Positions 15,501-41,660 of a DNA stretch of 64,000 nucleotides are shown piece after piece (within the stretch, counting starts at the first letter, position 1; each line of letters opens with the position of its first letter). Made by a program: the position numbers and the translations under genes. The stretch lies in IMG/VR virus record IMGVR_UViG_3300049044_000094; one strand, given 5' to 3'. The notes below the pieces were generated by a model. The model did not search any database. It was not told where the DNA came from and was given only the letters and a program-made list of their open reading frames with translations. Source of the DNA: a virus (Duplodnaviria > Heunggongvirae > Uroviricota > Caudoviricetes).

Positions 15501-17769
15501 CGCCAATAATCAGCGCCTTGTTCAGGCTGAGACGATAACTCTCACTTCGCGCTTTGAGGGCTTGGCCGTTCAGCTAGGAACTACTGAGAACAAGTTCTAT
15601 GACTTAGTCAACGCACTTCGAGCTTACAGAAAGGAGCAGCGTGAAGCCCTAGGAACTGCTCTTCAAGGACAGATCAACGCTGTAACACTTGAGCGCGACA
15701 GCCTTAACCGGCAAGGTGGCCAGCAAATCCGTGCCATTCGTACGAGCAATGAATATGGGCTGCTTAAGCCCGCTGAGCGTGCGGCACTTAATAATCCCAC
15801 ACGGGACGCGAATGCAGCAATCCTGACCGATGCTGCCAATCGACTGATCAAATCTAATCCGACGATCGCGCGCCAGCTTCTCGGTCTGTCCACCACGGCT
15901 GGACGATTTGTCGAGCTGGGGGTTCAGCAGAGAGGCGCTCAAGAAGCGCTGAGCTTCAACCGTGCAGCGACTTCAAATTACGGTCAGCAAGCCAGCAACT
16001 TTTTTGAGGGTGTCCAGGCCAGGATCGGACAGATCACCCCTCAGGCGACTGGTAAGGAACCTGGTGAACGGAAGGCGCTGTTCAATGCTCCGATCGCGGA
16101 TCTTGATCGGTTCGATCGTGAGCTTGAGAGGAAGCTCAACGCTGGTGGGCTCCGTGAAGGTGATCGAGAATTCATTGAGGATCTCCGCCAACAGGTCGCT
16201 TCTGCCAAAGCTGGTGTACAGGCGCTCGTCGATCCGACTTCGGCTGAGCAGAAGGCCAGTGACCGTGCGGCCAACAAGGCTGCCGGCGCCGCCAGGCGTG
16301 CGCAGAACAAGGCGCTCAGCAACGATCAGTTCCTTGAGCGTTCACAACTCAAGACGGCCGAACTCGATATCAAGGACGCGCTCGAGGATGTTGCGCAGGC
16401 GTCGGCCCTTGCAATTTACGACGAGGGTCGTGAGGCCGCGATGGCGGCACTTGATCGTTGGGTTGACGAACGTAACCAACTGGCCGACGCCGAGATTGCG
16501 AAGCGAGGCCTTGGAGGGGAACAGGCAGAACTCTATCGCCGGGAGGTCGCTGAAGAGATCCGCGCTAAGACCGATCAGGTTGTGCGTGCCCTCAACGATG
16601 GGTTCCGTAAATATATCGATGCTCAGGTAGACCAGATCAATCGCGAATTTGATCAGGCACTCCAGCCCACTCAGAGAGCACTCGGTATTGCAGAGGGACT
16701 TCGCAGCGGCCTGGATCGAGAATCTCTCAATGGTAAGGTGCCGGATTACGTACGGCAACTAGCGGACCGACGGGCGGGTTTGGCTCGGGATGAGGCTGAT
16801 CGCGCCGCTATCCCGGCCAATGAGGCCCGCATCGCCCGACTGCAGCAGCTCGCCAATGACACCAGGGCGCGTATCGAGGTTGCAAAGGGTGAGGGGGCAT
16901 CGACTGCTGAAGTCGCCACTTTGAATATCGAAGTCGAGAAGCTCACGCAGCAGATCGACGAGTTGTCAGTCGCCAATGACAATCTCAAGGCTAGCTTCCA
17001 TTCCGAGACGCTTATACCGCCAACCCTCGGCGCCTCCCTCCGTTCTGCTATCGATGCGTATGCTCAGGCGAATGGCGTCAACAACACCTTCGCCGAAAAC
17101 CTTAAGAACAACCTGGGTGGCGCGGTCGCGGCGGTTGGGGAGGGGTTCCGTGGCTTTTTCTCCAGCATTATCAGCGGCTCACAGTCCGCCGGTGGGGCGT
17201 TCATGGGTTTTGTCAAGAGCGTGATCCGCGCTCTTGAAGAGCTGCTGGCTCAGCAGCTCGCGCTGATGCTCCTCAAGCAAATCTTCAGCATGTTCGGCAG
17301 CTCTTTTGGCGGATCCACCTCGACCAGCCTTTCGGCGGGGACCGCCGGCGGCGGCTCGATCGGTGGTGCATCCGGCGCCAGTTTCATGCCAACCACTCTC
17401 CGATATCGAGGTGGCCCCATCACCGGTTACGACACCGGTGGTCTCGTCCGCAACGGGGTGCCTAATCGTGACAGCGTGAATGCGAAGCTGGCGAAGGGCG
17501 AGTTCGTGTTGCGGAAGAGTGCCGTGGATTCTCTCGGTGCCGAGTTCGTGAGCGACCTCAATCGCCGTGGTAAAATGGCGATCGAGGGCCTGAAGAAGAT
17601 GCCCACCGTGGTTCAGCAGATGCCTAAGCAAGAAATGGCTGTCTACGTCGTGGCCCCTGAGCAGAGGCCATCGCTTACGCCGAACGACGTGCTCGTCACG
17701 ATCCAGGAGGACATCCTCAAGGACGGCACGACCAAGAAACTGATCAAACACGTAAGCCAAGGAGGATAG
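12565..17769 (+). CDS. tail tape measure protein
   Basis: 1734 aa; N-terminal 500 aa coiled coil; central TP901-family TMP core; Gly-rich C-terminus. Confidence 0.8.
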   Translation: MANEPGTVEGNVDLEVDGSGIVKAIAAIETKIAKIQGAITKIVNDSTLGAAEFDKKLSGTVAGLQQALGQVNTLQKKLEADARKPITQANQNAGLARATSQAATYAKTLDNATTSADALQAKLNDINKAIARGGADGILPKRAIENQKKNTERAIADLRRLDGELERLEAKARRSKGIDVSFDKAQVQQARKSLLEATLNPRRSNFQNEINALSDAQAGLAKAIGDFRNKGAETLRSYRQNAREGADEARKQAQVELAYRARELSDVRQVQAQKRLAADEDKAYRSSQLAARRELTEAEKIGAAQVAALNRKQFEDDARADKERELRRKDALKDHQTSLKTRKDAAVAEVAALRASGNAEALEQARIRNAGLIAAARDRLKTSTGEEARKIHEILDIEKARGQALRQDLAAEERRAAAIERQEKAQRNLVARLDQRFRKDGLRDEIAAEKAANNLTNARVEASRRLLDARQRYKLASAEEKQELLRTIELERARLRLIDQEVAAAKRLAEAESRGAGRDKGSPIKNILTPSYAGAAFARTAVYGAAAGVAYGAFNAVQEGLQFVVQFEDELKNLQAISGATETQLASLSDTIVDVASQSKFSTLEITKAATTLAQAGFSTSDMEKSLAAVTGLAAASGSSPAEAVDVLTSSISAFNLQTSEASRVSDVLVAALNRSKLTIEQVRLAIQYVGATAYEQNISLEQLVATAGALANAGVRSGSTIGTGLRQLLVDLQNPSEKLLEQFNRLNISLADVDVKTRGFPAVLQTLTDKGFGAAQAYGALETRAAAAYLVLRNQQDTLGDLLVAVARQGAAAEANAKAMDSLSAQWTRFTNILSTSASGALQDTVDFLKSVLTIAGDGIQKIKDLREEASKSGVAEQVQQYSLPGPLDALSALNKALLTVADSGVIAGRELGLLDQNTRGWGERWIAYSDSVSGSSANLDDLSTATKDATEQLDAQQQTVSSLDQEIARLLLQQNSIANNQRLVQAETITLTSRFEGLAVQLGTTENKFYDLVNALRAYRKEQREALGTALQGQINAVTLERDSLNRQGGQQIRAIRTSNEYGLLKPAERAALNNPTRDANAAILTDAANRLIKSNPTIARQLLGLSTTAGRFVELGVQQRGAQEALSFNRAATSNYGQQASNFFEGVQARIGQITPQATGKEPGERKALFNAPIADLDRFDRELERKLNAGGLREGDREFIEDLRQQVASAKAGVQALVDPTSAEQKASDRAANKAAGAARRAQNKALSNDQFLERSQLKTAELDIKDALEDVAQASALAIYDEGREAAMAALDRWVDERNQLADAEIAKRGLGGEQAELYRREVAEEIRAKTDQVVRALNDGFRKYIDAQVDQINREFDQALQPTQRALGIAEGLRSGLDRESLNGKVPDYVRQLADRRAGLARDEADRAAIPANEARIARLQQLANDTRARIEVAKGEGASTAEVATLNIEVEKLTQQIDELSVANDNLKASFHSETLIPPTLGASLRSAIDAYAQANGVNNTFAENLKNNLGGAVAAVGEGFRGFFSSIISGSQSAGGAFMGFVKSVIRALEELLAQQLALMLLKQIFSMFGSSFGGSTSTSLSAGTAGGGSIGGASGASFMPTTLRYRGGPITGYDTGGLVRNGVPNRDSVNAKLAKGEFVLRKSAVDSLGAEFVSDLNRRGKMAIEGLKKMPTVVQQMPKQEMAVYVVAPEQRPSLTPNDVLVTIQEDILKDGTTKKLIKHVSQGG

Positions 17770-17770
17770 G

Positions 17771-18172
17771 GTGTCCGGCACGTTCGACTTCTGCCCGAAC
17801 AGTCTTGTGCCGGAGCTGATGCCACCAGATCCGGTTAAGGGCATCAGCATGAATGGTTGGACGTTCACGGCCAAGCCCACCATCCCGTACCAGCGCAAGT
17901 GGAAGGTCACCCTTCACGGCATGAAGTGGTTCCTGCAGTCGAACGGCTTATTCGACACTACGACGCAGCCGATGATCAATGCGCGGCGCCTCGAGCTGTT
18001 CTATCAGTCCAACGGGGTTTGGGACAATTTTTCGTGGACGCATCCGCACCTTGGTGCGCTCACCTGTCGATTTGATGCCGCGGTTGCGGTGCCGGCTGGT
18101 ATTCCAAATTCGGGTGGACTGATCGAAGCGTTCGAGATCACGCTCGTTGAGCATAATCCGGGATATTCATGA
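17771..18172 (+). CDS. minor tail protein M-like (distal tail)
   Basis: FSWTHPHLGALTCRFD..IEAFEITLVE aligns with lambda gpM FLWTPPYEWRQIKVTC..VEFSAEFEQV. Confidence 0.5.
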   Translation: MSGTFDFCPNSLVPELMPPDPVKGISMNGWTFTAKPTIPYQRKWKVTLHGMKWFLQSNGLFDTTTQPMINARRLELFYQSNGVWDNFSWTHPHLGALTCRFDAAVAVPAGIPNSGGLIEAFEITLVEHNPGYS

Positions 18173-18723
18173 TGGTCAGTCTGAGCAAAGTCGGTCGCCG
18201 TTTCGAGGTGCCCCTCACCGTCATCGAGGGTGGATCGGGGACCATTCAGGGCATTATCTCCGAGACCGACCAGCAGCAAATCCCCAGCTACATCTTCGTG
18301 CAGCAGCGGCATGTTCTGCGGGTACCGGCGCCGACTGCTCTGCAGTTCGGCATGGTCGTCCGTACCCCTGCCGGCCAGGTCTATATCCTCGGCGACAACG
18401 GGCCATCCGAAGCCGCTGAAGGCACCGTCTGGCAATCGTTCCGGCTCTTCGAACCCAGCGGCCAGTATCGGTGGGAGCGGCGGATCAAGGTCGTGGATCC
18501 CGTCACTCGGCTGGAACGTGATGATGGCTTGCAGGATATGGGCACCGTCTGGGCGGCCATGGAGCCGCTGGATCGCGAAGCCTTCGACCGGAAGATCCGC
18601 GCTTCGTTCGAGCAGAGCCGGTTCATCACCGGTGCTGCCGTTCTCTCAGATGACCTGCTCGACGGCCGGCCGGTGACCAAGAGCGATGTGCTGCTTGGCC
18701 TCCGGATCGGCGTCATTACCTAG
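18169..18723 (+). CDS. hypothetical tail protein
   Basis: 184-aa ORF overlapping previous stop (ATGA). Confidence 0.4.
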   Translation: MMVSLSKVGRRFEVPLTVIEGGSGTIQGIISETDQQQIPSYIFVQQRHVLRVPAPTALQFGMVVRTPAGQVYILGDNGPSEAAEGTVWQSFRLFEPSGQYRWERRIKVVDPVTRLERDDGLQDMGTVWAAMEPLDREAFDRKIRASFEQSRFITGAAVLSDDLLDGRPVTKSDVLLGLRIGVIT

Positions 18724-19393
18724 AAGCTCAGAACGCTGTTGATCTTAGCCACAGCCGCCTCGAGGTTGGCCGCCCCTGGCGTGATCGTATCTTTCGATGG
18801 CGGCGCACTAGGACCGGTGTTGTCAGTCTTGCCACCCAGCGCTGCGTTGATGATCTGAACCAAGCTGTTGTGTTGGGTGAGCTGGACCGCGGCCAGCTCC
18901 CCATATTTCAATCGCACCCGCTGGCTCAGTTCATAGAAGCTATACACCCAGTACAGCTTCTCGGCTTCATCTTCGCAAACATTGAATGCCCAGCAGATGG
19001 CGTCGTTCAGGCTGAGGCCTGAGAACCACTCGTCGAGAGCGCCAATTGCGGAAGCGCCTCTTTGAACTGGTTGCCCAGGCGAGCGAGTTCGCTCGCCTGC
19101 TGCTGAAAAAAATACAGCAGGTGCTCCGTGATCCATTTGAGCAGGTCCGACACTTCGTTCGGACCAATGTCATCCAGCTCATCGAAGTCGATCAAGTCCT
19201 CGATCTTCTCGACGGACTTCTTAACCGGCGTGAGTGCTCGACGAACTAGGTAATCCCGGGCGTAGGGATCGGTCAGCACCGTTGTGATGGCATTTTCAAC
19301 ATCGGGTACCATGCGCTGAAGATCGTTGAACAAGCCGTAGCTCATCTTGATCTCGCGGTCGCCGATCGTGATGGTGGAGTTGGGGCGTTCCAT
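18720..19393 (-). CDS. RHH-coupled protein split into two overlapping frames (128-aa ORF 19007-19393 and 138-aa ORF 18720-19136); -1 shift at T7 tract would fuse a ~245-aa product
   Basis: both frames protein-like; A7 run at 19106-19112 (T7 on coding strand) lies in the 130-nt overlap; ATG 19393 overlaps RHH stop (TAATG). Confidence 0.4.
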
Positions 19394-19590
19394 TATTCTT
19401 CGGTCTCCACGACGGCCTTGATCAGAAGCAGGCGAAGCGCCTGGTCGAGCGAGACATGCTTGCCCATCCCGAGGCGAAGAAGCTGGTTGACCTTGGCATT
19501 GAGGTTTTGGCCGTCGGCCTGGGCCAGTTCGGCAAGCTCGGTGTACATCTCGCGAGGTACCCGAACGGTGAAGCTGCGGTCTTTTGACAC
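19393..19590 (-). CDS. ribbon-helix-helix (CopG/Arc-like) DNA-binding protein
   Basis: GTG 19590 with GGAG RBS; RSFTVRVPREMYTELAELAQADGQNLNAKVNQLLRLGM is a canonical RHH strand-helix-helix. Confidence 0.55.
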   Translation of the reverse strand: MSKDRSFTVRVPREMYTELAELAQADGQNLNAKVNQLLRLGMGKHVSLDQALRLLLIKAVVETEE

Positions 19591-19759
19591 GTAGTTACTC
19601 CGGCGGTTGACAGGCAACCACCTAGGACGACGACTGCAACCAGTCGATGTGCAGTTGGGACTTAGATTTGGTGAAGCGCGGTGGCCGCGCTTTACATGGT
19701 TCTTCGTGATGACGGCTTTCAGAGAGGGCGCTGAAGTTTCGTCATACAGGAGCGCCATC

Positions 19760-20605
19760 GTGGCTGACGTCCAGAAGAACGCTTTTCTCCTTTCCAGCGC
19801 CACCCTGATGGTCGCTCCGGCTTTTACGACCGATGTGTTCACCCTCAAGCCGGACCTTCACTCGGTCGGCATGGCCCGAGAGATTGCCATCAGCGTCGAC
19901 AGTTCGCTTATCGAACTGCGAAACGGCATCGCGCAGGCGCTCGTCGACGCGAAGAAGACGAACGTGTCGGCGCAGATTACCGGCACCGTCTACGAGATCA
20001 CTGCCCAGAACCTGCTTCGCGCGGCCGCGCTCGATAGCTCGCAGGCGGTGCAGGTGAAGCGTGGCGTGCTGACCGCGGCGGCCAACGCCGCGGCTGTGTC
20101 GCTCTCGATCAACAGCGACCCCGTCCCCGGTGACACCAACAGCGCCATCACGGCGACGGGCGACATCCCGTCCGGTTCGACGATCCTGATCCAACGGCCC
20201 GGCAGCGAGACGGATTATGTGTTTCCCACCCTCACCTCGGGTGCGGCCACCGGCACCGGTCCCTACACCGTTCCTATCGCTGGAGCGTACGCGATCCCGG
20301 CGGGAATGTCGTTCCCGATCGGCTCGCGCGTCTGGGTGGTCACCCCGGTGGCCGTGGCGTCCATGGACGCCGATCAGCTCTTCGGTGTCAAGATCGTCGG
20401 CACGCTGTCGAACTACGACCGACCCGTCACGGCGGTGTTTCCGAAGGTGCGTATGTCGAAGGGCTTCAACCTGTCGTTCCAGGAGAGCGAATACGGCAGC
20501 ATGCCGTGGGAGATGAGCCCGCTGCTGCTCTCGGCCGCGGAGGCGACCAACCGGCTCGCCGAGATCGGTACCCGCGCACCCGGCAAGGTGTATGTCGGCG
20601 GCTAG
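19760..20605 (+). CDS. structural protein, candidate displaced major tail protein
   Basis: GTG 19760 with AGGAG RBS 7 nt upstream; 281 aa, Ala/Thr/Val-rich beta pattern; followed by the strongest terminator in the window. Confidence 0.35.
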   Translation: MADVQKNAFLLSSATLMVAPAFTTDVFTLKPDLHSVGMAREIAISVDSSLIELRNGIAQALVDAKKTNVSAQITGTVYEITAQNLLRAAALDSSQAVQVKRGVLTAAANAAAVSLSINSDPVPGDTNSAITATGDIPSGSTILIQRPGSETDYVFPTLTSGAATGTGPYTVPIAGAYAIPAGMSFPIGSRVWVVTPVAVASMDADQLFGVKIVGTLSNYDRPVTAVFPKVRMSKGFNLSFQESEYGSMPWEMSPLLLSAAEATNRLAEIGTRAPGKVYVGG

Positions 20606-20652
20606 TATACCCTGAAGATCAGCCTCTGCACTCAAGCGGCTTCAGGTTTCAC

Positions 20653-20694
20653 GGAACCCCCGGACAGCGCAAGCTCTCCGGGGGTTCCGCTTTT
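20653..20694 (+). terminator. rho-independent terminator
   Basis: GGAACCCCCGGA-12 nt-TCCGGGGGTTCC then GCTTTT. Confidence 0.7.
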
Positions 20695-20748
20695 GTAACT
20701 CCCAACACATCATCGACCACATCTCCGCCCACGGCGTAGTTCACCCCC

Positions 20749-21246
20749 GTGACTGCAATCCCCGCCTCCCATATCAGCGACGCTCACAAGCTCAACGCTG
20801 ACGGTAGGGTCGAGCTGTTCGAGCTGACGCCTATCGGTGCATATGGGACCGTTTACTTCAAGTCTGACAACTCGGTGACGTGGCAGGGCCACGAATATCT
20901 GGGTGTTCCTCTCACCTATTCTGGAGAGGATCGCACCGCACAGGGCGCCGCCCAGCAACCGCGGTTGATCATCGGACAGGAGAACGTCAATCTCTCGATG
21001 TTCAAACCGATCGTGAATGACGGCGCACTTGATGGCTCCATCATCCATAAGCTTGAGATCCTCCTCGACGACCTGATCAACAACCGGCCAATTTACCTGC
21101 GAAGGCCGTTTCGTGTTCGTCGTGTCGAGGGTTACACCCGCAGTCAGATCTCGCTTCAGCTCGCTTCCTTCTCGGATTCCTTAAGCTTCACCATGCCCTT
21201 CCGGCAGTATTTCCCACCCGCATTCCCCGCGGTGAATATCGGATGA
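20749..21246 (+). CDS. minor tail protein L
   Basis: VELFELTPIGAYGTVYFKSDNSVTWQGHEY aligns with lambda gpL VVLWEIDLTEVGGERYFF..VTWQGRQY. Confidence 0.6.
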   Translation: MTAIPASHISDAHKLNADGRVELFELTPIGAYGTVYFKSDNSVTWQGHEYLGVPLTYSGEDRTAQGAAQQPRLIIGQENVNLSMFKPIVNDGALDGSIIHKLEILLDDLINNRPIYLRRPFRVRRVEGYTRSQISLQLASFSDSLSFTMPFRQYFPPAFPAVNIG

Positions 21247-21728
21247 TCCGCTATGATCACCTCGTCGGCATTCATTTCGAACCGGGTGTGCACGATTGCT
21301 TCTCGCTTGGTCGGCAATTCTTCGTCGATAACTTCGGCCTGGTGATCACCGACTACGCCCGCCCCACCGACTGGAGAGCCGACAACCTCGATTTGATCGG
21401 CGCCGCCTACGAGCGTGAGGGCTTCGAGAAGATCACTGATTGGCGCGAAAAGGACCTTCGCCCCGGCGATGTGTTCTGCATGGCGATCGGGGAATCCAAG
21501 CCCAACCACTTCGCCATTTATGTTGGCGACAACATGATCCTCCATCAATTGCTTGGGCGGATGTCGGCGGCAGAACCGTACCGCGATTTCTGGCGCAACT
21601 GCACATCCTATCTGCTGCGCCATCCGTCGGTCCCCGACCTGAGGCCGACTCCGCCGGAACACGAAATAGGGAGCTTGCTGCGTGCTCGATACAATCTCCA
21701 AGCTGCTGAGCCTGTTCAAGGAGACTGA
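21243..21728 (+). CDS. NlpC/P60 (C40) peptidase, gpK-like half
   Basis: Cys-His motif DVFCMAIGE..NHFAIYVG typical of NlpC/P60. Confidence 0.6.
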   Translation: MIRYDHLVGIHFEPGVHDCFSLGRQFFVDNFGLVITDYARPTDWRADNLDLIGAAYEREGFEKITDWREKDLRPGDVFCMAIGESKPNHFAIYVGDNMILHQLLGRMSAAEPYRDFWRNCTSYLLRHPSVPDLRPTPPEHEIGSLLRARYNLQAAEPVQGD

Positions 21729-22047
21729 CGAGGAGGAACGCTGTGGCGTTGTTCTCAAAAGCGGCCGAGTGGTCGAGCTGCGGAATGTCGCGCCCGATCC
21801 GAAAATCGGCTTTCGTCTTGATCCGGCCGAATTGCTCCATTGGCTGACTCGCAAGCGCAGCCCGGCCGTGGCCACTTGGCACACCCATCCTGGCCAGACC
21901 CCGAACCTCAGTGAGGAAGACTACGCGGGTTTCCTCCAGTGGCCTGACCTCAAGCACTACATCGTCGGCGTTAAAGCCGGCCGGCCGACCGTAGCCACCT
22001 ACGAAGTCGATAATGGCATCATCGTCGCGGTGGGAGGCACGGTGTGA
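21682..22047 (+). CDS. JAB/MPN metalloprotease domain, gpK-like half
   Basis: JAMM motif HTHPGQTPNLSEED (HxHx7Sx2D). Confidence 0.65.
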   Translation: MLDTISKLLSLFKETDEEERCGVVLKSGRVVELRNVAPDPKIGFRLDPAELLHWLTRKRSPAVATWHTHPGQTPNLSEEDYAGFLQWPDLKHYIVGVKAGRPTVATYEVDNGIIVAVGGTV

Positions 22048-22604
22048 AGATCTATCTCCATGGCGTGTTGAAGGAGAGGTACGGCCCGGTCTTCGAGATC
22101 AAGACTGACCGTGTTCACGATGCCATTGAAGGCCTTTCGCGGCAGCTCCCCGATTGGCCACGCGATCTTTTGATTGAGGCCGTGGGCTTCGAAACTGAGG
22201 AGAAGCTTCGTTCGCCGTCGGACGCTTGCGAGGTCCACCTGCTGCCCGCCATGTTCGGCGGCAAGGGCATCGCCAAGTTCATTGGCATCATCATCGGCGC
22301 CGCTATGGTCGTGGCGGGAATTCTGCTCCTTCCGACCAACCCTGCTCTCGGATGGTCGCTCATTGCCTCAGGCGCCACGATGATCCTTGCCGGCGTTGTC
22401 CAGCTCTTCATGAAGGCACCGACTGTCTCGAAGGCCAACGACCCACCAGCCTCCAAATTCCTTGGCGTCAACAAGAACACAACAGACATCGGCACGCCGA
22501 TCATCCTTGCCTGGGGCAGAGTGCCGATCGCGGGCCACTGGCTCAGCATTCAGGCCGACAGCAACAAGCTTGTGCTCGGCGTATTTCCGGAGACTCCGAC
22601 TTGA
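22044..22604 (+). CDS. tail assembly protein I
   Basis: N-terminal ubiquitin-like MKIYLHGVLKERYGPVFEIK..EVHLLPAMFGG then hydrophobic C-terminus, as in lambda gpI. Confidence 0.6.
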   Translation: MKIYLHGVLKERYGPVFEIKTDRVHDAIEGLSRQLPDWPRDLLIEAVGFETEEKLRSPSDACEVHLLPAMFGGKGIAKFIGIIIGAAMVVAGILLLPTNPALGWSLIASGATMILAGVVQLFMKAPTVSKANDPPASKFLGVNKNTTDIGTPIILAWGRVPIAGHWLSIQADSNKLVLGVFPETPT

Positions 22605-23833
22605 TCGATCCTCGCATACTGGATTTCGCCAACGAAGTCGAAGCTCAGCACATCAATGCCTTTCTGCGCCATGGTACTTTTACCGCGGCGGGCGACGCGA
22701 TCGAGGTGCATCGCAGCACGATCCAACGCTCGATCGAACGGGTGAAAATGCGGGCCGCCGCCCACGGCTACAGCCCCGACCACGGCCTCGAGAGTGTCGT
22801 CCCGGCACCTTTCATTGCCAAAGGACATTCGACGCTGGAGCGCGTCTCTCCGGACGGTAGTCGTGAGCAGGTCCTGCAATGGACAAAGACGAAGATCGAC
22901 GACACCTTGTGGATGGAGCACGTCAAGGAAGGCATCAATGCTTTCCTGCAGGGCGCGCCCAAGGTCTTGGCGCCACACGCTCCGCTCGACTTCGATACAG
23001 ACATCATCCCTTGGATTCAGATCGGCGACGCCCACATCGGCATGCTGGCGCATGCCGCGGAAGTCGGCGAGAACTTTGACCTGAAGATCGCCGAGACCGA
23101 GCTGTGTGGCGCCTTCAGCATCCTCATCGATGAGTTGCCGAACTGCGAGCGGCTGGTCATCAATGACCTCGGCGATTTCACCCACTACGAGAATTTCTCA
23201 GCCAAAACCGAGGCGAGCGGCCACGACCTCGATTTCGACAGCCGCTTCCCCAAGATGATCAAGGTCTACTCGCGTATCATGCGATGGCTGGTCGACAAGG
23301 CTCTGACCAAGGCTCGACATGTCGACGTCATTGTGAACCAGGGCAACCACAGTCGCACCAACGACATCTGGATGGCTGAGTTGCTGCGCGTTTGCTATGG
23401 GCACACCGGTCGAGTTCACGTTCTCAACAACGACAGCGTTTTCATCGGCTACCGGATGGGGAACACGTTCGTGATGACTCATCACAGCGACAAGTGCCGG
23501 CCCAACCGCCTCGCGCACGTCATGACCACCGACTTCCGGCAGGATTATGGAGAGACCGAATTCCATTACATCGACATCGGCCACGTCCACCACAGCATGG
23601 TGGTGAAGGAGCACCCCGGTGTCGTCGTCGAGAGCTTCAATAACCTCGCGGCGATGGACAAATATGCCTTCGACAACGGTTATCGCAGCAAGCGGTCGAT
23701 GACCACGATCCTACGCAGTCGCCGCTATGGGGAGATAGGCCGGCGGACGCTGCCGATCCAGGAGGTCCGTGAGCGGCTGAACAGAGCGATCGGGTTCGAG
23801 ATCCCGAAGGTGCAACGCGCCTACGCGGTGTAA
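22601..23833 (+). CDS. HTH domain + calcineurin-like metallophosphoesterase, inserted between tail genes I and J
   Basis: TTG 22601 with GGAGAC RBS, overlaps gpI stop (TTGA); HTH AAGDAIEVHRSTIQRSIERV; phosphoesterase motifs GDAHIG, GDFTH, GNHS, GHVHH. Confidence 0.5.
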   Translation: MIDPRILDFANEVEAQHINAFLRHGTFTAAGDAIEVHRSTIQRSIERVKMRAAAHGYSPDHGLESVVPAPFIAKGHSTLERVSPDGSREQVLQWTKTKIDDTLWMEHVKEGINAFLQGAPKVLAPHAPLDFDTDIIPWIQIGDAHIGMLAHAAEVGENFDLKIAETELCGAFSILIDELPNCERLVINDLGDFTHYENFSAKTEASGHDLDFDSRFPKMIKVYSRIMRWLVDKALTKARHVDVIVNQGNHSRTNDIWMAELLRVCYGHTGRVHVLNNDSVFIGYRMGNTFVMTHHSDKCRPNRLAHVMTTDFRQDYGETEFHYIDIGHVHHSMVVKEHPGVVVESFNNLAAMDKYAFDNGYRSKRSMTTILRSRRYGEIGRRTLPIQEVRERLNRAIGFEIPKVQRAYAV

Positions 23834-23882
23834 CTCCCAGCCCCACCAATGAGATTGCCGCCGGTTGCGATAACCGGCGGCA

Positions 23883-26800
23883 ATGGGTTTCAAGCAGCGT
23901 CCTGACACGCTCCGATCAGACGATTCTTTCGAGGGTCTGCTCGGCCTATGCGCCGGCCCGATCAAAGGGCCAAGACGCGGCCTAAAGTCGATCTACATGA
24001 ATGGTACCCCTCTCGAGGACGAGAGTGGCCAGCAGAACTTCCTCGATTTTCAGGCGATCTTTGCTGACGGAGATCCGCTGAAATTTCCGCAGAAGGCGGT
24101 GATGAAGCTGGGGCAGGGTGGCAGCCCAATCCCGGTGAACCTTACGCTGACGAACACTGCGACGTCAGAAGGAACCCCAGGTCCGTGGATCACCAAGACG
24201 GTGCCCAACGTCGGCGCTGACGCTCTCGATATTCGGCTGGTCGTTCAGCAACTCTATGAGCAGACCAAGAAGGGCATTTTCCAGGCGACGCTCAACGTCG
24301 AGGTTCAGCTCAAGCCGACTGGTACCACGAACTGGATCAATCCGCTGATCGACAACCCCGCTGTCACTTATGATGACATGATCAACTACAGGAAGGGGCG
24401 GTCCTCCGCGATTGGCACTGTCCTTAAAATGATGGTTGCTCGTAAAAATTTCAAAGATAATGGCGAATGGATTGCGGAGCCGAATAGCGGTTACGTCCGC
24501 ATCATCGGCAAGACCATGTCCAGCCCTTATGTGCATGAGCTGCGCATCGAGGTGCCAAATGACGATGCCTACGCTGGTGTTGGTTGGGATGTTCGCTGCC
24601 GTCTGATCGAGCCGGAATCCATCGACGCGGATCCCAATTTCCTTAAGCGCACCATTAGCTGGGAATCGGTCAGCGCTGTGTATCAGGAGCCACTGGGTGG
24701 CGATGAGGCGTGGCGCGGCCTCTCATGGTTGCATCTGTTCGGCAAGGCTTCCGATCAGTTGACGGGTGTGCCCGAGGTCTGGGCCGAGTATGACAGCAAG
24801 ATCGTGTCGGTGCCTCCCCTCGAGGTTTTCGATCCTGAGACTCGTACCTACACGACCGCAACCTGGGACGGGTCCTGGGCTAAAGGGTTCACCACCGACC
24901 CGGCCTGGATCATCAACGATGCCATCTCCGATAGTCTCTCTGGGCTGTCGAACATCGCCCCGGGATCCTATCTGAACAAATGGGACGCGCTGGAAGCATC
25001 AAAATGGTTCAGCGAACCCGTCTCAGACGGCGATGGCGGGCTCGAGCCGCGCTTCTCCCTGAATCTCGTCGTCGACCAGATGCAGAAGGCGTCGGAGTTC
25101 GTCCAGTATATGGCCGGCGCCGTATGCGGCCTCGCATGGGAGAACGGCGATGGCGAGTGGCGGCTTAAGGTCGAGAAGCCCGAGACGCCCATCGACATCT
25201 TCACGCTGGAGAACATAGAGGGCGAATTTTCCTACGCCCATACCGATGTCGATAGTCGCTTCAACGACTACCTGATCACGTTCAAGAACAAGGAGTTCGA
25301 GTACCGCGAGGACCGGGTCCGCGTCTTCGACCAAGCCCATATCGATACCTACGGTCGGAAGCCCACCTCCATCGTAGCGATCGGCTGCACCGGTCGGCAG
25401 GAAGCGCTCCGCCGCGGCATGATGCGGTTGCGCTCGTCGATCAATGAGACGCGCATGGTCACCTTCACGACTAATCGGCGCGGCCGTTATCTCGAGCCTC
25501 TGAATACGATCCTCGTCGCCGACGGCGATCTGGGTTACACCCTCCCCGACGGGATCGGTGCGTCCAACCCGGCTGACGACACCGTCGAGAACAATCGAAC
25601 CACCGGCCGCGTAATCTCGATGAACGGGGCTCGTACCCAACTCACGCTCCGTGACACCGTGCGGCTCGAGATCGGTGTCACGTACAAGCTCCACCTGACC
25701 GTTCCAAACCCCAACTACAATGGCGAGCCGACCAGCCAACCGATTGATCCGAGCTGGAAGCTGCCGACGATCACGATCACCCGCAACATCACTAATACCA
25801 GCGGGCAGCGTGGCGACGTTTCGACGCTGTATCTCGACAGCGCATTGCCGTCGAACACCCCTGAGCTGGTCGCAGTAGCAATTGAAGCCGCCGGCTTGCC
25901 TACGATCCCCAAGATGTACCGGGTGACCGATGTTAAGCCTGCCGAAGACGGCGAGCGCGTAGCTGTCACCGCGATGGAGGTCGACACCGGCAAATACGCC
26001 GCCGCGGACAACGTCGACGCCTCTGCGATTGCGATGCAGGTGCCGACGGCAATCGTGCCTGCGCCGCTTGAGCCCACCGATGGTCCCTTCCTCTCGGTCA
26101 AGAAACTGAGCAGCGACAACGTCGATCACACCCATCTCCAGGTCAACTGGGGCCGCCCTGGATCCGCCTTCCTCGCGGGATTCCGTGTCCGCTACAAAGT
26201 GAATGACGGGCCTTGGATCACAGGCGTCGAGCGCACCCAAGACACCAGCTTCGAGTTGGTCGACCCGGCCGCCGGCACCTACAAGTTCGAGATCGTCACG
26301 ATCGATCGACGGAATGCCTTCTCGACGGCTTTGATCGGATCGATAGAAATCGACGGGCTGGTTGTCGACACTGCATCGCTAGGGCAGTTTTCCTTGGCGC
26401 TCGGTGCCGGCATGAAGCTGCGCGGCCGTACGTTGGAGAAGGCAACTGGTACAGACATCTGGGACACTGGAGCATACTCGCTCGAGTCCTATGTGAATGG
26501 TGCCTCAGCTTCACTTCAACCGCTGCAGACCAACAAGGCGCTGGCATTCGGGTTGAACACTGACCCCACGATCGCAACCGGCATCAATAGCATCGACTAC
26601 GGCTTCATTTGCGACGTGGATGGCAATCTCTACGTCACCGAGGTGCCGACAGGGACGGTCTTTCCCCGAACCTCGATCATCACTGAGGCTGGAGAGGAGA
26701 TCATCGCCGAGGACAGCACACCGTTGGTGACGGAGCAGAGCGCTTCGGCGCCTTTGCTCATCGGCCCCTATGAAGCCGGTGACGTTCTCAAAATCACCTA

Positions 26801-28040
26801 CAATGCCGAGATCGTCGAATATAGCCAGAACGACGTTGTAGTCCGCACCGTTGCTGCGCCTCGAGGCCTGCGTTTCAAATTCGACAGCGCCTTCCATAGC
26901 CTCGGTGCGAAGGCTGACAATGTCGTCTTCGCCGCGGTAGGCGCCGTCGCACCGCTTCTGATCACCGAATGGTCCGTCAACGGTACCACCGGCTGGCACA
27001 CATCTTATTCTGTCGGCGACCTATATATGCGACAGTCGGCCGATGCCGGCATAACATTCTCGACTCCGGTGAGGGTCGTCGGCGAAGACGGCAGCGCCGG
27101 CGAATACACCAACTTCATTTTCAAGCGGTCGGTAACGCAACCCTCAACACCGGCAATGGGGAGCGGCGTGCTACCCGCAGGGTGGAGCGATTCTCCTCCC
27201 ACAGGGGCGGACCCACTATGGATGACCACGGCGCAGTTCCTGTTAACCGATCAACTGACAGCCTGGGCCACCCCCACGCGGCTCGACGGAGAGGACGCAG
27301 CGCGCCTTGATGTGCCTGTACGTGCTCATCATTTCGATGCGACGTACACAGGGGTCATCAAGGACGGCCAGCTTCCGCTTGACTTCCTGGCATACGCTAA
27401 GATCGGCGAGATCGATGTTTCCGATGACGCGACTTGGTCTGTCGAGACCAGCAATTGCACTGTTTCTGTCGTAGATGGCGAAGGCCAAATCTCGGAAGTG
27501 ACCGGCCCAGGATACTTTGATATTACCGCAGAGTTTGCGGGCATCAGCGTCACCGCACGTGTTGACGTATCGGTGGCTCTCGATGCACCTCCCGTTCCAC
27601 CCAGTTCGGGGGTGACGATCGCAACATCAAACGCGGTGCCCCCTACGGTAAACAGCGGCACCTATCCGGCGACGCCGAGCGCGATTGTAACAGTCTCCAG
27701 CGATAGCTCCGGACGTTTGCAGGGAGTGCTTACCTCGAAGTATTATCCGATCATCAGCTCCGGCGTCGCTGTCGGGATCAGGCTCGCCGCGAAGTTCGTC
27801 TATCGCCTAGCTGGTTCCGGTGGGGCATGGAGTGATTTCGGGTCGGAGGTCGAGGGTAGCAATGGCAGCGCCTACCGCTACGGCATCAGCAAGGGCGTGC
27901 TGAACATCGATCAGACCAAGACGGGCCTCACCGCGAGCACCGATTATGAGGTGGGCGTGATGTTCCGCAGAACCTATGAGAGTCCAGCTTCTGGGTGGAC
28001 AGCATCGCTCTCAGGAACAGAAACGGTGAAGCAACCATGA
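23883..28040 (+). CDS. host specificity / central tail fiber protein J
   Basis: N-terminus GPIKGPRRGLKSIYMNGTPLEDESGQ aligns with lambda gpJ GPIEGPVDGLKSVLLNSTPVLDTEG; 1385 aa. Confidence 0.75.
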   Translation: MGFKQRPDTLRSDDSFEGLLGLCAGPIKGPRRGLKSIYMNGTPLEDESGQQNFLDFQAIFADGDPLKFPQKAVMKLGQGGSPIPVNLTLTNTATSEGTPGPWITKTVPNVGADALDIRLVVQQLYEQTKKGIFQATLNVEVQLKPTGTTNWINPLIDNPAVTYDDMINYRKGRSSAIGTVLKMMVARKNFKDNGEWIAEPNSGYVRIIGKTMSSPYVHELRIEVPNDDAYAGVGWDVRCRLIEPESIDADPNFLKRTISWESVSAVYQEPLGGDEAWRGLSWLHLFGKASDQLTGVPEVWAEYDSKIVSVPPLEVFDPETRTYTTATWDGSWAKGFTTDPAWIINDAISDSLSGLSNIAPGSYLNKWDALEASKWFSEPVSDGDGGLEPRFSLNLVVDQMQKASEFVQYMAGAVCGLAWENGDGEWRLKVEKPETPIDIFTLENIEGEFSYAHTDVDSRFNDYLITFKNKEFEYREDRVRVFDQAHIDTYGRKPTSIVAIGCTGRQEALRRGMMRLRSSINETRMVTFTTNRRGRYLEPLNTILVADGDLGYTLPDGIGASNPADDTVENNRTTGRVISMNGARTQLTLRDTVRLEIGVTYKLHLTVPNPNYNGEPTSQPIDPSWKLPTITITRNITNTSGQRGDVSTLYLDSALPSNTPELVAVAIEAAGLPTIPKMYRVTDVKPAEDGERVAVTAMEVDTGKYAAADNVDASAIAMQVPTAIVPAPLEPTDGPFLSVKKLSSDNVDHTHLQVNWGRPGSAFLAGFRVRYKVNDGPWITGVERTQDTSFELVDPAAGTYKFEIVTIDRRNAFSTALIGSIEIDGLVVDTASLGQFSLALGAGMKLRGRTLEKATGTDIWDTGAYSLESYVNGASASLQPLQTNKALAFGLNTDPTIATGINSIDYGFICDVDGNLYVTEVPTGTVFPRTSIITEAGEEIIAEDSTPLVTEQSASAPLLIGPYEAGDVLKITYNAEIVEYSQNDVVVRTVAAPRGLRFKFDSAFHSLGAKADNVVFAAVGAVAPLLITEWSVNGTTGWHTSYSVGDLYMRQSADAGITFSTPVRVVGEDGSAGEYTNFIFKRSVTQPSTPAMGSGVLPAGWSDSPPTGADPLWMTTAQFLLTDQLTAWATPTRLDGEDAARLDVPVRAHHFDATYTGVIKDGQLPLDFLAYAKIGEIDVSDDATWSVETSNCTVSVVDGEGQISEVTGPGYFDITAEFAGISVTARVDVSVALDAPPVPPSSGVTIATSNAVPPTVNSGTYPATPSAIVTVSSDSSGRLQGVLTSKYYPIISSGVAVGIRLAAKFVYRLAGSGGAWSDFGSEVEGSNGSAYRYGISKGVLNIDQTKTGLTASTDYEVGVMFRRTYESPASGWTASLSGTETVKQP

Positions 28041-28570
28041 GTGAGCAGCACTGGACGATCGTGAACAAAGCGACCGGTCAGGTTCTGGCTCAGGTCATAA
28101 CCCCAGGTGGGCATCCCCGCTTTTACGGTTGGGATTGGGATCCCGGCACTCAGGTCGCCCGAATGACCGCGCGGCAAGGCGATCCAGCTTCGGAGATCTT
28201 CGATGGGGATGAGTGGCAACCGAATCTTGCCGCCTATCGAGCCCGGCGCTGGACTTCGCTGAAAGCGGATCGGGACGCGGCCGTAGACGGCGGATGTGAA
28301 ACACCTCTAGGGCGTGTGGATAGTGATCCGGAAAGCCGAGTGAAGATCAGCGGCGCAGTTCAGCTCGCGATGCTGTCGCCGGAATTCTCGATCGCTTGGA
28401 CGATGGAGGATAACTCAAGCGTCAACCATGACGCGGCCGCTATGATTGCCTTGGGTATTGCAGTTGGTCAGCACGTCGCACAATGCCATGCCACTGCTCA
28501 ATCTCTGCGAAGCCAGCTCGAGGCAGCTAATAGCATCGCTGAGATTGAGGCAGTGAGATGGCCGATTTAG
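28037..28570 (+). CDS. DUF4376-like tail fiber assembly protein
   Basis: ATG overlaps gpJ stop (ATGA); position and C-terminal helical pattern. Confidence 0.4.
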   Translation: MSEQHWTIVNKATGQVLAQVITPGGHPRFYGWDWDPGTQVARMTARQGDPASEIFDGDEWQPNLAAYRARRWTSLKADRDAAVDGGCETPLGRVDSDPESRVKISGAVQLAMLSPEFSIAWTMEDNSSVNHDAAAMIALGIAVGQHVAQCHATAQSLRSQLEAANSIAEIEAVRWPI

Positions 28571-29193
28571 AAGGTGCCGTTGTCGTTGAACGCCTCAATC
28601 ATCGCACCGGCTCGGCCGACCGCGGGGCGGTTGTCGATAGCGTTGCCGGTCTCGATCGCGTCCAGCATGATTGCGATCGACGCTAGGGCGTGCCCCAGAT
28701 GATGGACCCCGCTGTCGCCGGCCTTTTCCTCGCCGTCGAGGAACGAAGCGAGATGGCGTTGCGCCGCGGCGACGTAGGTCATCAACTCGACCTTCTTTTC
28801 GCGCCAATTGTAGGGCCCATATTTCGCCGCGCCGTTCATAAAGGCGTGAGCCATATGAAGCATGGCAGCCGAGGGGACGAGCGCTAGGTTCGGCTTTTTC
28901 GCGCCCATGGCGTTCTTGGGGTTGGCGTCGTCGTTGGCCGCAGTTGGGGCTACGATGGGAATGTCCGAGATCCGCTTCGTCGCCATTTCAACCACCTTAT
29001 CTACGACATCATTAACTGACACTGGATCTGAGAATTTGTTGACGTACGGCACCAACTCGGGTCCGAAGACCAACGGCTCGCGCCGCTCTGGAAATCGAAT
29101 GGTAGTGCCGTGGCCCGATACGATCTTGCCTGGCTCGAGCTTGATCGGCTGCTCCACGACAACGTGGCCTTTGGGGTCGAGGTAACTGCTCAT
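28567..29193 (-). CDS. dATP/dGTP diphosphohydrolase N-domain-like (DUF5664) protein
   Basis: NLALVPSAAMLHMAHAFMNGAAKYGPYNWRE pattern; GGAGG RBS; coupled to thyA. Confidence 0.4.
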   Translation of the reverse strand: MSSYLDPKGHVVVEQPIKLEPGKIVSGHGTTIRFPERREPLVFGPELVPYVNKFSDPVSVNDVVDKVVEMATKRISDIPIVAPTAANDDANPKNAMGAKKPNLALVPSAAMLHMAHAFMNGAAKYGPYNWREKKVELMTYVAAAQRHLASFLDGEEKAGDSGVHHLGHALASIAIMLDAIETGNAIDNRPAVGRAGAMIEAFNDNGTF

Positions 29194-30011
29194 ACTGCAA
29201 CCTCCGCAGCAATGGTAGGATAGGGATCGTAGCCGAGGAGGTGGATGTCCTCGGATTTGAAGTCGAAGACGGTGTTCACAGCACGCGCGAACCGGACGGT
29301 CGGAGCCGATCTCCCCGTGCGGCCGAGTTGCTCTTCCACCTGCTCGCGGTGGTTGAGATAAATGTGCGTGTCGCCGCCGACCCACACGAGCTTGCCGAGC
29401 CCGAGGCCAGTGGTCCAGGCGAGCATCTGCGTCAGGAGCGCGTAGCTGGCGATATTGAATGGCACGCCCAGGAACATATCCGCCGACCGCTGGTAGAGCT
29501 GGCAGCTCAGCCGATTATCGTTCGAGACATGGAACTGGAACAGGCAGTGGCATGGTGGCAGCTTCATGTCGGGGACATCCAGCGGATTCCAGGCCGACAC
29601 AATATGCCGCCGCGACCACGGGTTCTTGACGAGATCCTCGACCAAAGTCTTCATCTGGTCGACGGCGACGGGTTTGCCGTTGGAGGCGACCCCACGCCAA
29701 TCCCGCCACTGTTTGCCATAGACCGGGCCTAGCTCGCCCTTCTCGTCGGCCCACTCATCCCAGATGTGGACACTGGCCTCCTGCAGCGGCTTCACGTTTG
29801 TGCTGCCGGCCAGGAACCAGAGCAACTCCTCGACCACGCCCCGCCAATAGACCCGCTTGGTCGTGAGCAAAGGAAATTCCTTGCCGAGGTCGAAGCTCAT
29901 GCGGCCGCCAAAGATACCGACAGTTCCGACCCCGGTGCGGTCTTTGCGCTCTTCGCCGTCGCGCAGTACCTCGCGCAGCAGCGATGCGTAGGTTTGATCG
30001 GCGCGGCTCAT
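29190..30011 (-). CDS. thyA: thymidylate synthase
   Basis: full ThyA signature including PPCH and catalytic-Cys region (LPPCHCLFQF), DTHIY. Confidence 0.85.
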   Translation of the reverse strand: MSRADQTYASLLREVLRDGEERKDRTGVGTVGIFGGRMSFDLGKEFPLLTTKRVYWRGVVEELLWFLAGSTNVKPLQEASVHIWDEWADEKGELGPVYGKQWRDWRGVASNGKPVAVDQMKTLVEDLVKNPWSRRHIVSAWNPLDVPDMKLPPCHCLFQFHVSNDNRLSCQLYQRSADMFLGVPFNIASYALLTQMLAWTTGLGLGKLVWVGGDTHIYLNHREQVEEQLGRTGRSAPTVRFARAVNTVFDFKSEDIHLLGYDPYPTIAAEVAV

Positions 30012-30397
30012 ATCGAGAACTCCGGCAGGAAATAGCCGGGCTTCGGATCGAGCTTCCGAAGCGGGATCGAATAGAGCAACAGCCACGCGCCGTCGCGGCC
30101 AGTGCACATGGTGTGGGTGCCGGCTTCGAATTTGGTGCGAGCTTCGGCAATGGCGGGCTCGGTGTTATCCCAGCCCGCGGACGCTGCCTTGCGCTTGCCG
30201 ACGCGAAACTTGAGCAGCTCCGGCCGGCCTTCGCCACCCCAGCGCTCCTCACCCGAGACGATGCGGTCGGTGTTGTCATCGATGACCTGAAGAACGACGG
30301 TGACGTCGATTCCGACATTCTTCGCAGTCTTGAACGGGCTGCGAGTTCTCTTGAACTCATACAATATTTCTTCGATAATCTCGGGAGAAGGGGACAC
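30008..30397 (-). CDS. hypothetical protein
   Basis: 129-aa ORF coupled at both ends (ATGA overlaps). Confidence 0.4.
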   Translation of the reverse strand: MSPSPEIIEEILYEFKRTRSPFKTAKNVGIDVTVVLQVIDDNTDRIVSGEERWGGEGRPELLKFRVGKRKAASAGWDNTEPAIAEARTKFEAGTHTMCTGRDGAWLLLYSIPLRKLDPKPGYFLPEFSI

Positions 30398-41387: not shown

Positions 41388-41660
41388 CGCTCATTTCGCT
41401 GCGGGGCAAATCATGAACACCGACCTCTCAATTGGTTCGCAGGCGCTGCGCTAACCTATTGAGAATTATGAGCCCGTATATATCCCCAGAAATGCGAACA
41501 ACCGCGGAAATCCGCCATTTCTGGCGGATTTTAAGTCCGCTGCGTCTACCGGTTTCGCCACGTCCGCAGTCGCAGAAATCCGCCATTTTTTGAGAGGCGG
41601 TCCTGCGAGTTCGCACTTTTGATCCGAGGAGTTCGCACTTTCTCCTTTCGTTCTGTCAGG
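41388..41660. promoter_or_regulatory. attP-like region with integrase arm-type repeats
   Basis: 4 copies of GTTCGCA/TGCGAAC, 3 copies of AAATCCGCCA (two as perfect inverted repeat), hairpin 41433-41456; adjacent to int. Confidence 0.45.

Follow-up and report, generated by a model that had tools for sequence, protein, structure and literature searches.

An uncultured tailed phage carries a helix-turn-helix metallophosphoesterase gene of the PHROG 704 family between tail genes I and J

Introduction

Several described metallophosphoesterases (MPEs) can be compared with a gene found in the window, by which we mean the whole 64,000-nucleotide stretch of DNA analysed here from a virus of the Caudoviricetes (IMG/VR record IMGVR_UViG_3300049044_000094). 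The gene encodes an N-terminal helix-turn-helix (HTH) domain followed by an MPE core, and it is wedged between counterparts of the lambda tail genes I and J. Its nearest named relatives are the members of PHROG 704, for which the name "DNA repair exonuclease" is an annotation only; examples are the open reading frame (ORF) 40822-41955 of phage T1 (MK213796.1), ACG-M12 gp18/Rtp61-like, ORFs of Salmonella Jerseyvirus phages, Rhodobacter phage RcPescado gp50 and Vibrio phage SBP1 gp004. These proteins from cultured phages resemble the window protein in their length of about 380-420 aa, in the combination of an N-terminal HTH with an MPE and in carrying the same motifs, whereas their genes are located in DNA-metabolism, early or lysis-proximal regions and not between I and J.

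Within the wider superfamily, the lambda protein phosphatase and the other PPP enzymes share the fold and the five-motif logic of the window MPE. Mre11 shares the GDxxH motif. The partnership of Mre11/SbcD with Rad50/SbcC, however, is not found for the window protein: the SbcC-like gene of the window is 6.6 kb away on the other strand, the 13-15 kb surveyed around the gene in T1 and ACG-M12 include no SbcC-like gene, and the N-terminal HTH is foreign to Mre11/SbcD. That the MPE might serve as the SbcD partner of the SbcC-like protein was considered and rejected, since the window has a separate SbcD-like gene and other carriers of the family have no SbcC-like gene nearby.

Two experimentally studied proteins provide functional reference points. 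The P. putida MPE, a stand-alone Mn2+-dependent endonuclease acting on single-stranded DNA (PMC7826289), is likewise of the monomer type without a Rad50 partner and has the GDxxH and GNH histidines, but it has no detectable sequence relationship to the window protein, lacks an HTH and is encoded in a bacterial repair operon. Its residues His81, three positions after Asp78, and His113, which follows Asn112, are needed for DNA cleavage but not for hydrolysis of bis-pNPP (PMC7826289). Gp48 of the Cluster A mycobacteriophage A10ZJ24 is a phage MPE with phosphodiesterase activity that is reported to damage host DNA as a counter-defence and is thus a functional precedent, although it differs from the window gene in being an early gene, and no HTH is described for it in the same paper (PMC12287305). 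No Mycobacterium phages are found among the leading organism names of our tblastn matches, which gives no sign of a relation between the Gp48 family and that of the window.

Results

The window protein matches the PHROG 704 profile with an E-value of 5.2e-93 and 313 bits, residues 30-388 being aligned to profile positions 25-388 of 390. The gene that a preliminary description of this DNA had placed between tail genes I and J is confirmed at 22601-23833 on the plus strand, and the strength of the match (E 5e-93) and the number of homologues given below exclude chance. The family is large. Of the 50,697 phage records searched with tblastn, 2041 contain a homologue; in 1800, largely from T1-like and Jersey-like phages, the copy is nearly full-length, and the best cultured-phage homologue is 49% identical to the window protein. 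A metagenome set of 5.8 billion proteins yielded 1452 proteins at E<=1e-10, of which the best 120 are all 60-70% identical, and a HMMER scan of 1.84 billion cluster representatives returned 4972 at E<=1e-3, mostly of 380-420 aa and matched from the N-terminus. Carriers of PHROG 704 include phage T1 and other Drexlerviridae, Jersey-like Salmonella phages, Kagunavirus, Dhillonvirus, the N4-like Vibrio phage SBP1, Autographiviridae (PP99), Erwinia phage Era103, many Vibrio siphophages and Rhodobacter phages, while Klebsiella phages with the gene are placed beside the T1-like tblastn matches. Prophage copies occur in Massilia, Noviherbaspirillum, Pseudomonas, Pelagibacterium, Microbulbifer and others.

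Other resources are less informative. In Pfam the window protein has no match, and none to the Metallophos models (PF00149, PF12850) even at E<=10; the family members from ACG-M12 and ST521 score 18.7-22.1 bits against Metallophos, which is under the cutoffs; the missed models reflect sequence divergence and are not in conflict with the fold. No match to the window protein was found in NCBIfam, in the PADLOC models or in a search of PDB sequences, megablast of the gene region against phages gave no match, and a BFVD fold search led only to unnamed or guess-named phage proteins. In database records the family appears as "DNA repair exonuclease", "DNA polymerase II small subunit" or "oxidoreductase", names that amount to guesses. 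The gene is therefore an additional member of a very large, named and uncharacterised phage family and not a new tail component.

An AlphaFold model shows a metallophosphoesterase core with a beta-alpha-beta-alpha-beta sandwich fold, and its fold matches include MJ0936, Rv0805 and YfcE, the structural neighbours being rich in nucleases. All four motifs listed in the preliminary description, GDAHIG (142-147), GDFTH (191-195), GNHS (248-251) and GHVHH (327-331), are present, and the five-motif set of the superfamily is complete and invariant in an alignment of 48 homologues as GD143xH145, GD192FTH195, GN249H250S, H294H295 and GH328VH330H331. The sole deviation is a serine in place of the Asp or Glu that follows GNH. 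Since the metal-site residues D143, H145, D192, N249, H250, H294/H295, H328 and H330 are likewise invariant in the 48 homologues, the concern raised beforehand that they might prove non-conserved in an inactive fold does not apply. The histidines that correspond to His81 and His113 of the P. putida MPE are conserved in motif II (GDFTH) and motif III (GNH), respectively.

The stretch proposed beforehand as an N-terminal HTH corresponds to residues 29-48, which fall within a confident HTH in the model; modelled separately, residues 1-134 reach a pLDDT of 93. The HTH, of tri- or tetra-helical fold, resembles LysR and sigma-region-4 domains, whereas the linker residues 56-130 have no informative fold match. 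Mean identity of the homologues to the window protein is 31% in the HTH (1-55), 43% in the linker (56-130), 81% in the MPE core (131-345) and 53% in the C-terminus (346-410), and the recognition helix of the HTH is among the most variable parts of the protein. Judging by sequence comparison, the HTH is kept throughout the PHROG 704 family: most of the 150 best cluster representatives match from about profile position 4-14, and the RcPescado, ACG-M12 and ST521 homologues have weak N-terminal HTH matches in Pfam. The protein is unlikely to fit two named classes of the superfamily. The earlier suggestion of a protein phosphatase akin to the lambda enzyme is not supported, as neither the GDxVDRG and GNHE motifs nor PPP proteins as closest neighbours are found, and the features of PolD DP1 and the polymerase B-subunits, an N-terminal OB fold joined to a phosphodiesterase and a PolD/PolB partner, are also absent.

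The TTG start of the gene and the gpI stop codon share a TTGA overlap, and both this overlap and the GGAGAC ribosome-binding site were found in the sequence as had been described. The reading frame is open in the 5' direction as far as 22226, but the TTG at 22601 is supported as the start because the homologues begin at the matching residue, their N-termini (e.g. MIDPKLREW) aligning to it. The product has 410 residues plus the stop, where 411 aa had been given previously. The GC content of the gene (0.58-0.60) equals that of its flanks, and a foreign origin by base composition was rejected on that ground.

The placement between I and J is not a one-off insertion: it is a stable characteristic of a clade of uncultured phages. 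The order L-K-JAB-I-MPE-J-DUF4376 recurs in two identical contigs (L007 and L008) and in L009, a relative at 64% identity, and gpI is directly upstream in 29 of 80 IMG/VR loci found through the MPE. In a search that used the gpI alignment alone, independent of the MPE, the MPE gene follows right after I wherever the downstream sequence suffices in the 39 loci obtained, with the single exception of locus L121. An extra gene at this point is indeed unusual relative to lambda, as had been remarked, but not within the lineage, where nearly every gpI relative has it. The MPE is also the best-conserved gene of the module, at 60-68% identity compared with 42-65% for L, K, JAB, I and J. The tail module occurs in two arrangements. 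The window type reads TMP-M-p184, followed by a block of three reverse genes-p332-L-K-JAB-I-MPE and then by J, the window module spanning 12565-23833, and in the second type (L045, L051, L060, L073 and L075) the same block stands before TMP. The breakpoint between the two orders is directly after the hairpin that follows the MPE gene, and the MPE therefore travels with the L-K-I block and not with J. In this phage clade the MPE gene closes the L-K-I operon for tail-tip assembly, and its translation is coupled to that of gpI.

In the exceptional locus L121, from a distant relative whose gpI is 42% identical, the gap between I and J holds a 355-aa ORF (L121:2149-3216) with an ATG that overlaps the gpI stop as ATGA. 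Its product is an MPE too, but it belongs to phrog_20266 (E 3e-91): it matches Metallophos in Pfam, its GDxxD and GNHE motifs are canonical, and its N-terminus is a "homing endonuclease associated repeat" (PF18780). No relationship between phrog_20266 and the window family was found by hhalign (probability 0.5%). Two proteins of no recognisable similarity that both combine a DNA-binding domain with an MPE thus occupy the same slot. PHROG 20266, represented by L121, gp32 of the N4-like Roseobacter phage RD-1410W1-01 and gp096 of Bordetella phage PHB04, resembles the window gene in this slot and in the architecture of a DNA-binding N-terminus with an MPE, and differs in its canonical GDxxD/GNHE motifs, its Metallophos match and the type of its DNA-binding module (HNH_repeat). 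In RD-1410W1-01 the gene adjoins thymidylate synthase and dCMP deaminase, and in N4-like phages PHROG 20266 is located in the same kind of region as PHROG 704 in the N4-like SBP1. The shared I-J slot and the recurring pairing in N4-like phages argue that the two families may do the same job, of which DNA binding would be a part. As a separate observation, the phrog_20266 gene of Stenotrophomonas phages ANB28 and BUCTxx99 and Xanthomonas phage JGB6 is interrupted: its 2-3 pieces are spread across some 2 kb, and the annotation places a LAGLIDADG homing endonuclease within it, which suggests an intein or intron.

Outside this clade the surroundings of the gene vary. In T1 and ACG-M12 it comes after a helicase, VRR-NUC (ACG-M12), Dam (T1) and small ORFs, and the genes on its other side are an HNH endonuclease and, beyond that, the lysis cassette; in PP99 it lies between endonuclease VII and a group of HAD phosphatase, dNMP kinase and ligase genes; and in SBP1 it is in the early region beside a phosphatase, an HNH endonuclease and a MazG-like enzyme. 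In the Jersey-like ST521_1H4 it shares with an HNH endonuclease an island on the opposite strand within the tail module, in RcPescado and a Noviherbaspirillum prophage it is the final gene following the lysis cassette, and in Vibrio siphophages such as Vibrio phage 207E29 it is inside the head module. Among uncultured phages, the L055 group has the order endolysin, HslV-like protein, MPE, 48-aa ORF and 631-aa virion structural protein, and in L026 the MPE follows a giant protein of 1911 aa. Neighbours of the family in cultured phages are VRR-NUC, Dam, HNH, helicase, exonuclease, endonuclease VII and ligase. The common thread of these contexts is co-orientation with late or DNA-transaction genes, and the structural neighbourhood is inconsistent.

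Three apparent associations were examined and not retained. An ORF of about 70 aa that is rich in cysteine (CxxC...C...C) stands directly 5' of the MPE in L010, L020, L039, L042, L044 and L067, which are of the prophage type with the gene after the lysis cassette, but as it is limited to this subset of prophage-type loci and absent from the window, it was rejected as a conserved partner. A split RNA end-healing system, proposed from the adjacency of the MPE and a "polynucleotide kinase" in ACG-M12, PP99 and MEW1, was dropped because the latter has a HAD phosphatase motif: the proteins so named at L004:7684-8157 (ACG-M12) and L006:7075-7653 (PP99) carry the DxDGT motif of the Pnkp 3'-phosphatase type and no kinase P-loop. 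The window has no homologue of these proteins. Finally, a link with nucleotide-pool enzymes, suggested by a MazZ-like protein (PF18909) next to the MPE in SBP1 and near it in 207E29, L044, RcPescado and the window, was set aside as too inconsistent, the protein being absent near most loci.

A hairpin that occurs nowhere else in the window lies in the gap between the MPE gene and J; the first two letters (AT) of the J start codon ATG belong to its 3' arm. Relatives have comparably strong hairpins of different sequence at the same place after the MPE, with a median best folding free energy of -25 compared with -18 kcal/mol in windows drawn at random from those loci (Mann-Whitney p 2e-7, a value that is only indicative given the relatedness of the loci). 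The hairpin may close the L-K-I-MPE unit as a 3' element akin to a terminator or attenuator, or it may regulate how J is translated. With a terminator-like hairpin on one side and the coupling to gpI on the other, the MPE would therefore be made late together with the tail proteins.

The coordinates of the gene, its domains and its neighbours are collected in Table 1. The tail-gene neighbours agree with the preliminary description; L, a split K, I and J are all identified, and a DUF4376 protein comes after the J-like gene. The NlpC/P60 and JAB ORFs that make up the split K overlap by 47 nt, and their order is the reverse of the domain order in lambda K. Three small genes (18720-19848, minus strand) separate p184 from the 332-aa protein within the tail module and are kept in relatives; in the corresponding region of L009 a gene, there on the strand of the tail genes, has a weak HicB match.

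Table 1. Features of the HTH-MPE locus and the tail-tip genes around it (window coordinates).
Feature	Position	Strand	Remarks
HTH-MPE gene	22601..23833	+	410 aa plus stop; PHROG 704 full-length match
Ribosome-binding site GGAGAC	22589..22594	+	8 nt 5' of TTG start (counted from GGAG); read from sequence
N-terminal HTH domain	22601..22765	+	residues 1-55; helices 4-9, 12-24, 27-34, 38-54
Linker module	22766..22990	+	residues 56-130; long beta-hairpin 71-99 and helix 101-118 in models
Binuclear MPE core	22991..23635	+	residues 131-345; GD143xH145, GD192xxH195, GN249H250, H294H295, GH328xH330
C-terminal region	23636..23830	+	residues 346-410; conserved basic patch RSxxYGExGRRxLP; model confidence partly low
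Hairpin	23854..23884	+	perfect 13-bp stem and 5-nt loop (ATTGCCGCCGGTT/AACCGGCGGCAAT); in 49-nt gap between MPE stop and J start
gpL-like minor tail protein	20749..21246	+	PF05100 25.1 bits (cutoff 25); phrog_18 E 2.6e-12
gpK equivalent, split	21243..22047	+	NlpC/P60 ORF 21243-21728 (PF00877 E 7.6e-10), then JAB ORF 21682-22047 (PF14464 E 7.7e-8)
gpI-like tail assembly protein	22044..22604	+	phrog_32 E 8.7e-24; I-then-MPE order kept in relatives
gpJ-like central tail fibre	23883..28040	+	phrog_31 E 3e-104; PF13550 and PF24801

Elsewhere in the window, the sequence GACCWGGTC occurs 6 times compared with 0.54 expected (727, 45002, 52235, 57969, 60655 and 61651), for the most part where genes or operons meet; the one at 727 is just 5' of the terminase start, and none is near the MPE gene. 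No exact palindrome of at least 10 nt occurs more than 4 times in the genome, and GACCWGGTC may be the genome-wide palindrome for which the HTH had been put forward as a candidate binder. Two further genes of the MPE superfamily are present, encoding a PhoD-like phosphatase (34684-36558, plus strand) and an SbcD-like protein (44989-45966, minus strand), the latter not adjacent to the gene of the SbcC-like ATPase (30481-32421, minus strand). A MazZ-like dATP/dGTP diphosphohydrolase (PF18909) and thymidylate synthase (28567-30107, minus strand) converge on the end of the tail module. The phrog_2252 label "endolysin; inhibits RNA polymerase" for the PF18909 family looks like a misannotation that has spread into Vibrio phage records. 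The idea of a Z-genome (PurZ) was discarded, no adenylosuccinate-synthetase-like match being found among the large window ORFs scanned. A tyrosine-integrase-like gene (41661-42701, minus strand; phrog_1 E 2e-29) suggests that the phage may be temperate, and no prophage of this clade was found among species-representative genomes.

Discussion

The protein would be a two-domain cytoplasmic enzyme in which a fast-evolving HTH tethers a very strongly conserved binuclear MPE with an intact active site to DNA. Such an enzyme could be an HTH-guided, metal-dependent DNA phosphodiesterase, that is, a nuclease, made late and acting in the cell, where it might degrade host or competing DNA or process DNA ends or structures before packaging; the last part, the role, is the weakest step of the proposal. 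The comparisons establish the gene, the two domains with their unimpaired active site, the family to which the protein belongs, and the retained position and hairpin; DNA as the substrate, action in the infected cell and not in the virion, and the biological role are what we infer from them. The nuclease reading is favoured because of the full-length PHROG 704 match, the invariant site, the GDxxH and GNH histidines, the confident HTH that the family retains and the precedent of Gp48, and also because of the replacement in L121 by another pairing of DNA binding with an MPE and the DNA-transaction neighbours in cultured phages. Phage T1 "gene 2.5" is reportedly needed for degradation of host DNA and might correspond to the T1 homologue, which is a lead only. 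Several points weigh against the proposal. In the searchable literature no PHROG 704 member has been biochemically characterised; the window already has SbcC-like (30481-32421) and SbcD-like (44989-45966) genes, both on the minus strand, so that the need for another nuclease that processes ends is not evident; expression late, alongside the tail-tip genes, is odd timing for the degradation of host DNA; and the HTH could serve regulation instead of substrate targeting. As a whole, a late DNA phosphodiesterase targeted by its HTH and acting in the infected cell is a tentative reading, the best supported of those considered, which we regard as somewhat short of probable.

The location of the gene also invites the view that the enzyme is virion cargo, incorporated in the tail tip or the capsid and expelled along with the DNA to act on host DNA or defences at the start of infection. 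The coupling to gpI inside a tail-tip operon, the retention of the I-J position across the clade, the unrelated DNA-binding-domain and MPE gene in the same slot of L121 and the structural contexts in the L055 group, L026 and Vibrio phage 207E29 would all fit with this. However, the T1-like, T7-like and N4-like homologues are in non-structural regions, those of prophages and RcPescado come after the lysis cassette, no proteomic report of a family protein in virions was found in the literature, and gene position alone is no proof of packaging, which leaves cargo an unlikely explanation. A bolder version, in which the slot after gpI would be a dedicated position for an ejected tail-tip enzyme that cuts host or defence DNA, with two unrelated proteins recruited to it independently, appears more doubtful still. 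It also does not seem likely that the MPE is an anti-defence enzyme degrading the signals of CBASS, Pycsar, Thoeris or type III CRISPR systems or 2',3'-cyclic nucleoside monophosphates, with the HTH serving autoregulation. Many MPEs are cyclic-nucleotide phosphodiesterases, MJ0936, Rv0805 and YfcE are among the fold matches, and the family is widespread in virulent and temperate phages at variable positions, as is the case for accessory genes. The known phage signal nucleases Acb1 and Apyc1, on the other hand, have other folds, no PADLOC model is matched, the histidine of GDxxH is a nuclease-associated feature, and a signal hydrolase would leave unexplained both the universal DNA-binding domain and its exchange for a different one in L121.

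A selfish mobile nuclease, comparable to a free-standing homing endonuclease but with a novel MPE catalytic fold, would account for the joining of an HTH to a nuclease-like domain, for a position that differs between phage groups and is often adjacent to an HNH endonuclease, and for a core that is at least 60% identical between phages with unrelated flanks and is conserved at 81% next to a DNA-binding helix that is hypervariable at 31%. The sporadic presence and absence of such elements was, however, not observed among the 39 loci that gpI retrieved; within lineages the gene is fixed, being present in all gpI relatives but L121 and near full length in 1800 of 2041 phage records, and its divergence roughly tracks that of its neighbours, so that an origin of this kind seems very improbable. 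The least probable of the explanations considered is a late transcriptional regulator with the HTH as its working part and an MPE domain that senses or removes a small-molecule ligand. The similarity of the HTH to LysR and sigma-region-4 domains, a recognition helix that varies between phages as would be expected for phage-specific operators and the enrichment of GACCWGGTC at operon borders are consistent with regulation, but a core identity of 81% with invariant catalytic residues implies an enzyme under strong selection, the 3' end of a late operon is a poor place from which to regulate that operon, and there is no palindrome near the gene.

For the window alone, the gene was correctly spotted and is an ordinary member of its family. 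PHROG 704 itself comprises about 5000 clusters at 50% identity and is present in over 2000 sequenced genomes, among them T1, N4-like and T7-like phages and many phages whose isolation hosts were Klebsiella, Salmonella and E. coli. It ranks with the larger enzyme families of tailed phages that lack characterisation, and the conserved core, the hypervariable yet retained HTH and the same-slot replacement in L121 make it a tractable target, all the more as T1 and Jersey-like phages are easy to manipulate. If the protein were virion cargo, it would represent a new kind of injected siphophage effector. If it is a DNA nuclease directed against host or competing DNA, a common phage gene would be explained and the annotation of thousands of genomes would be affected.

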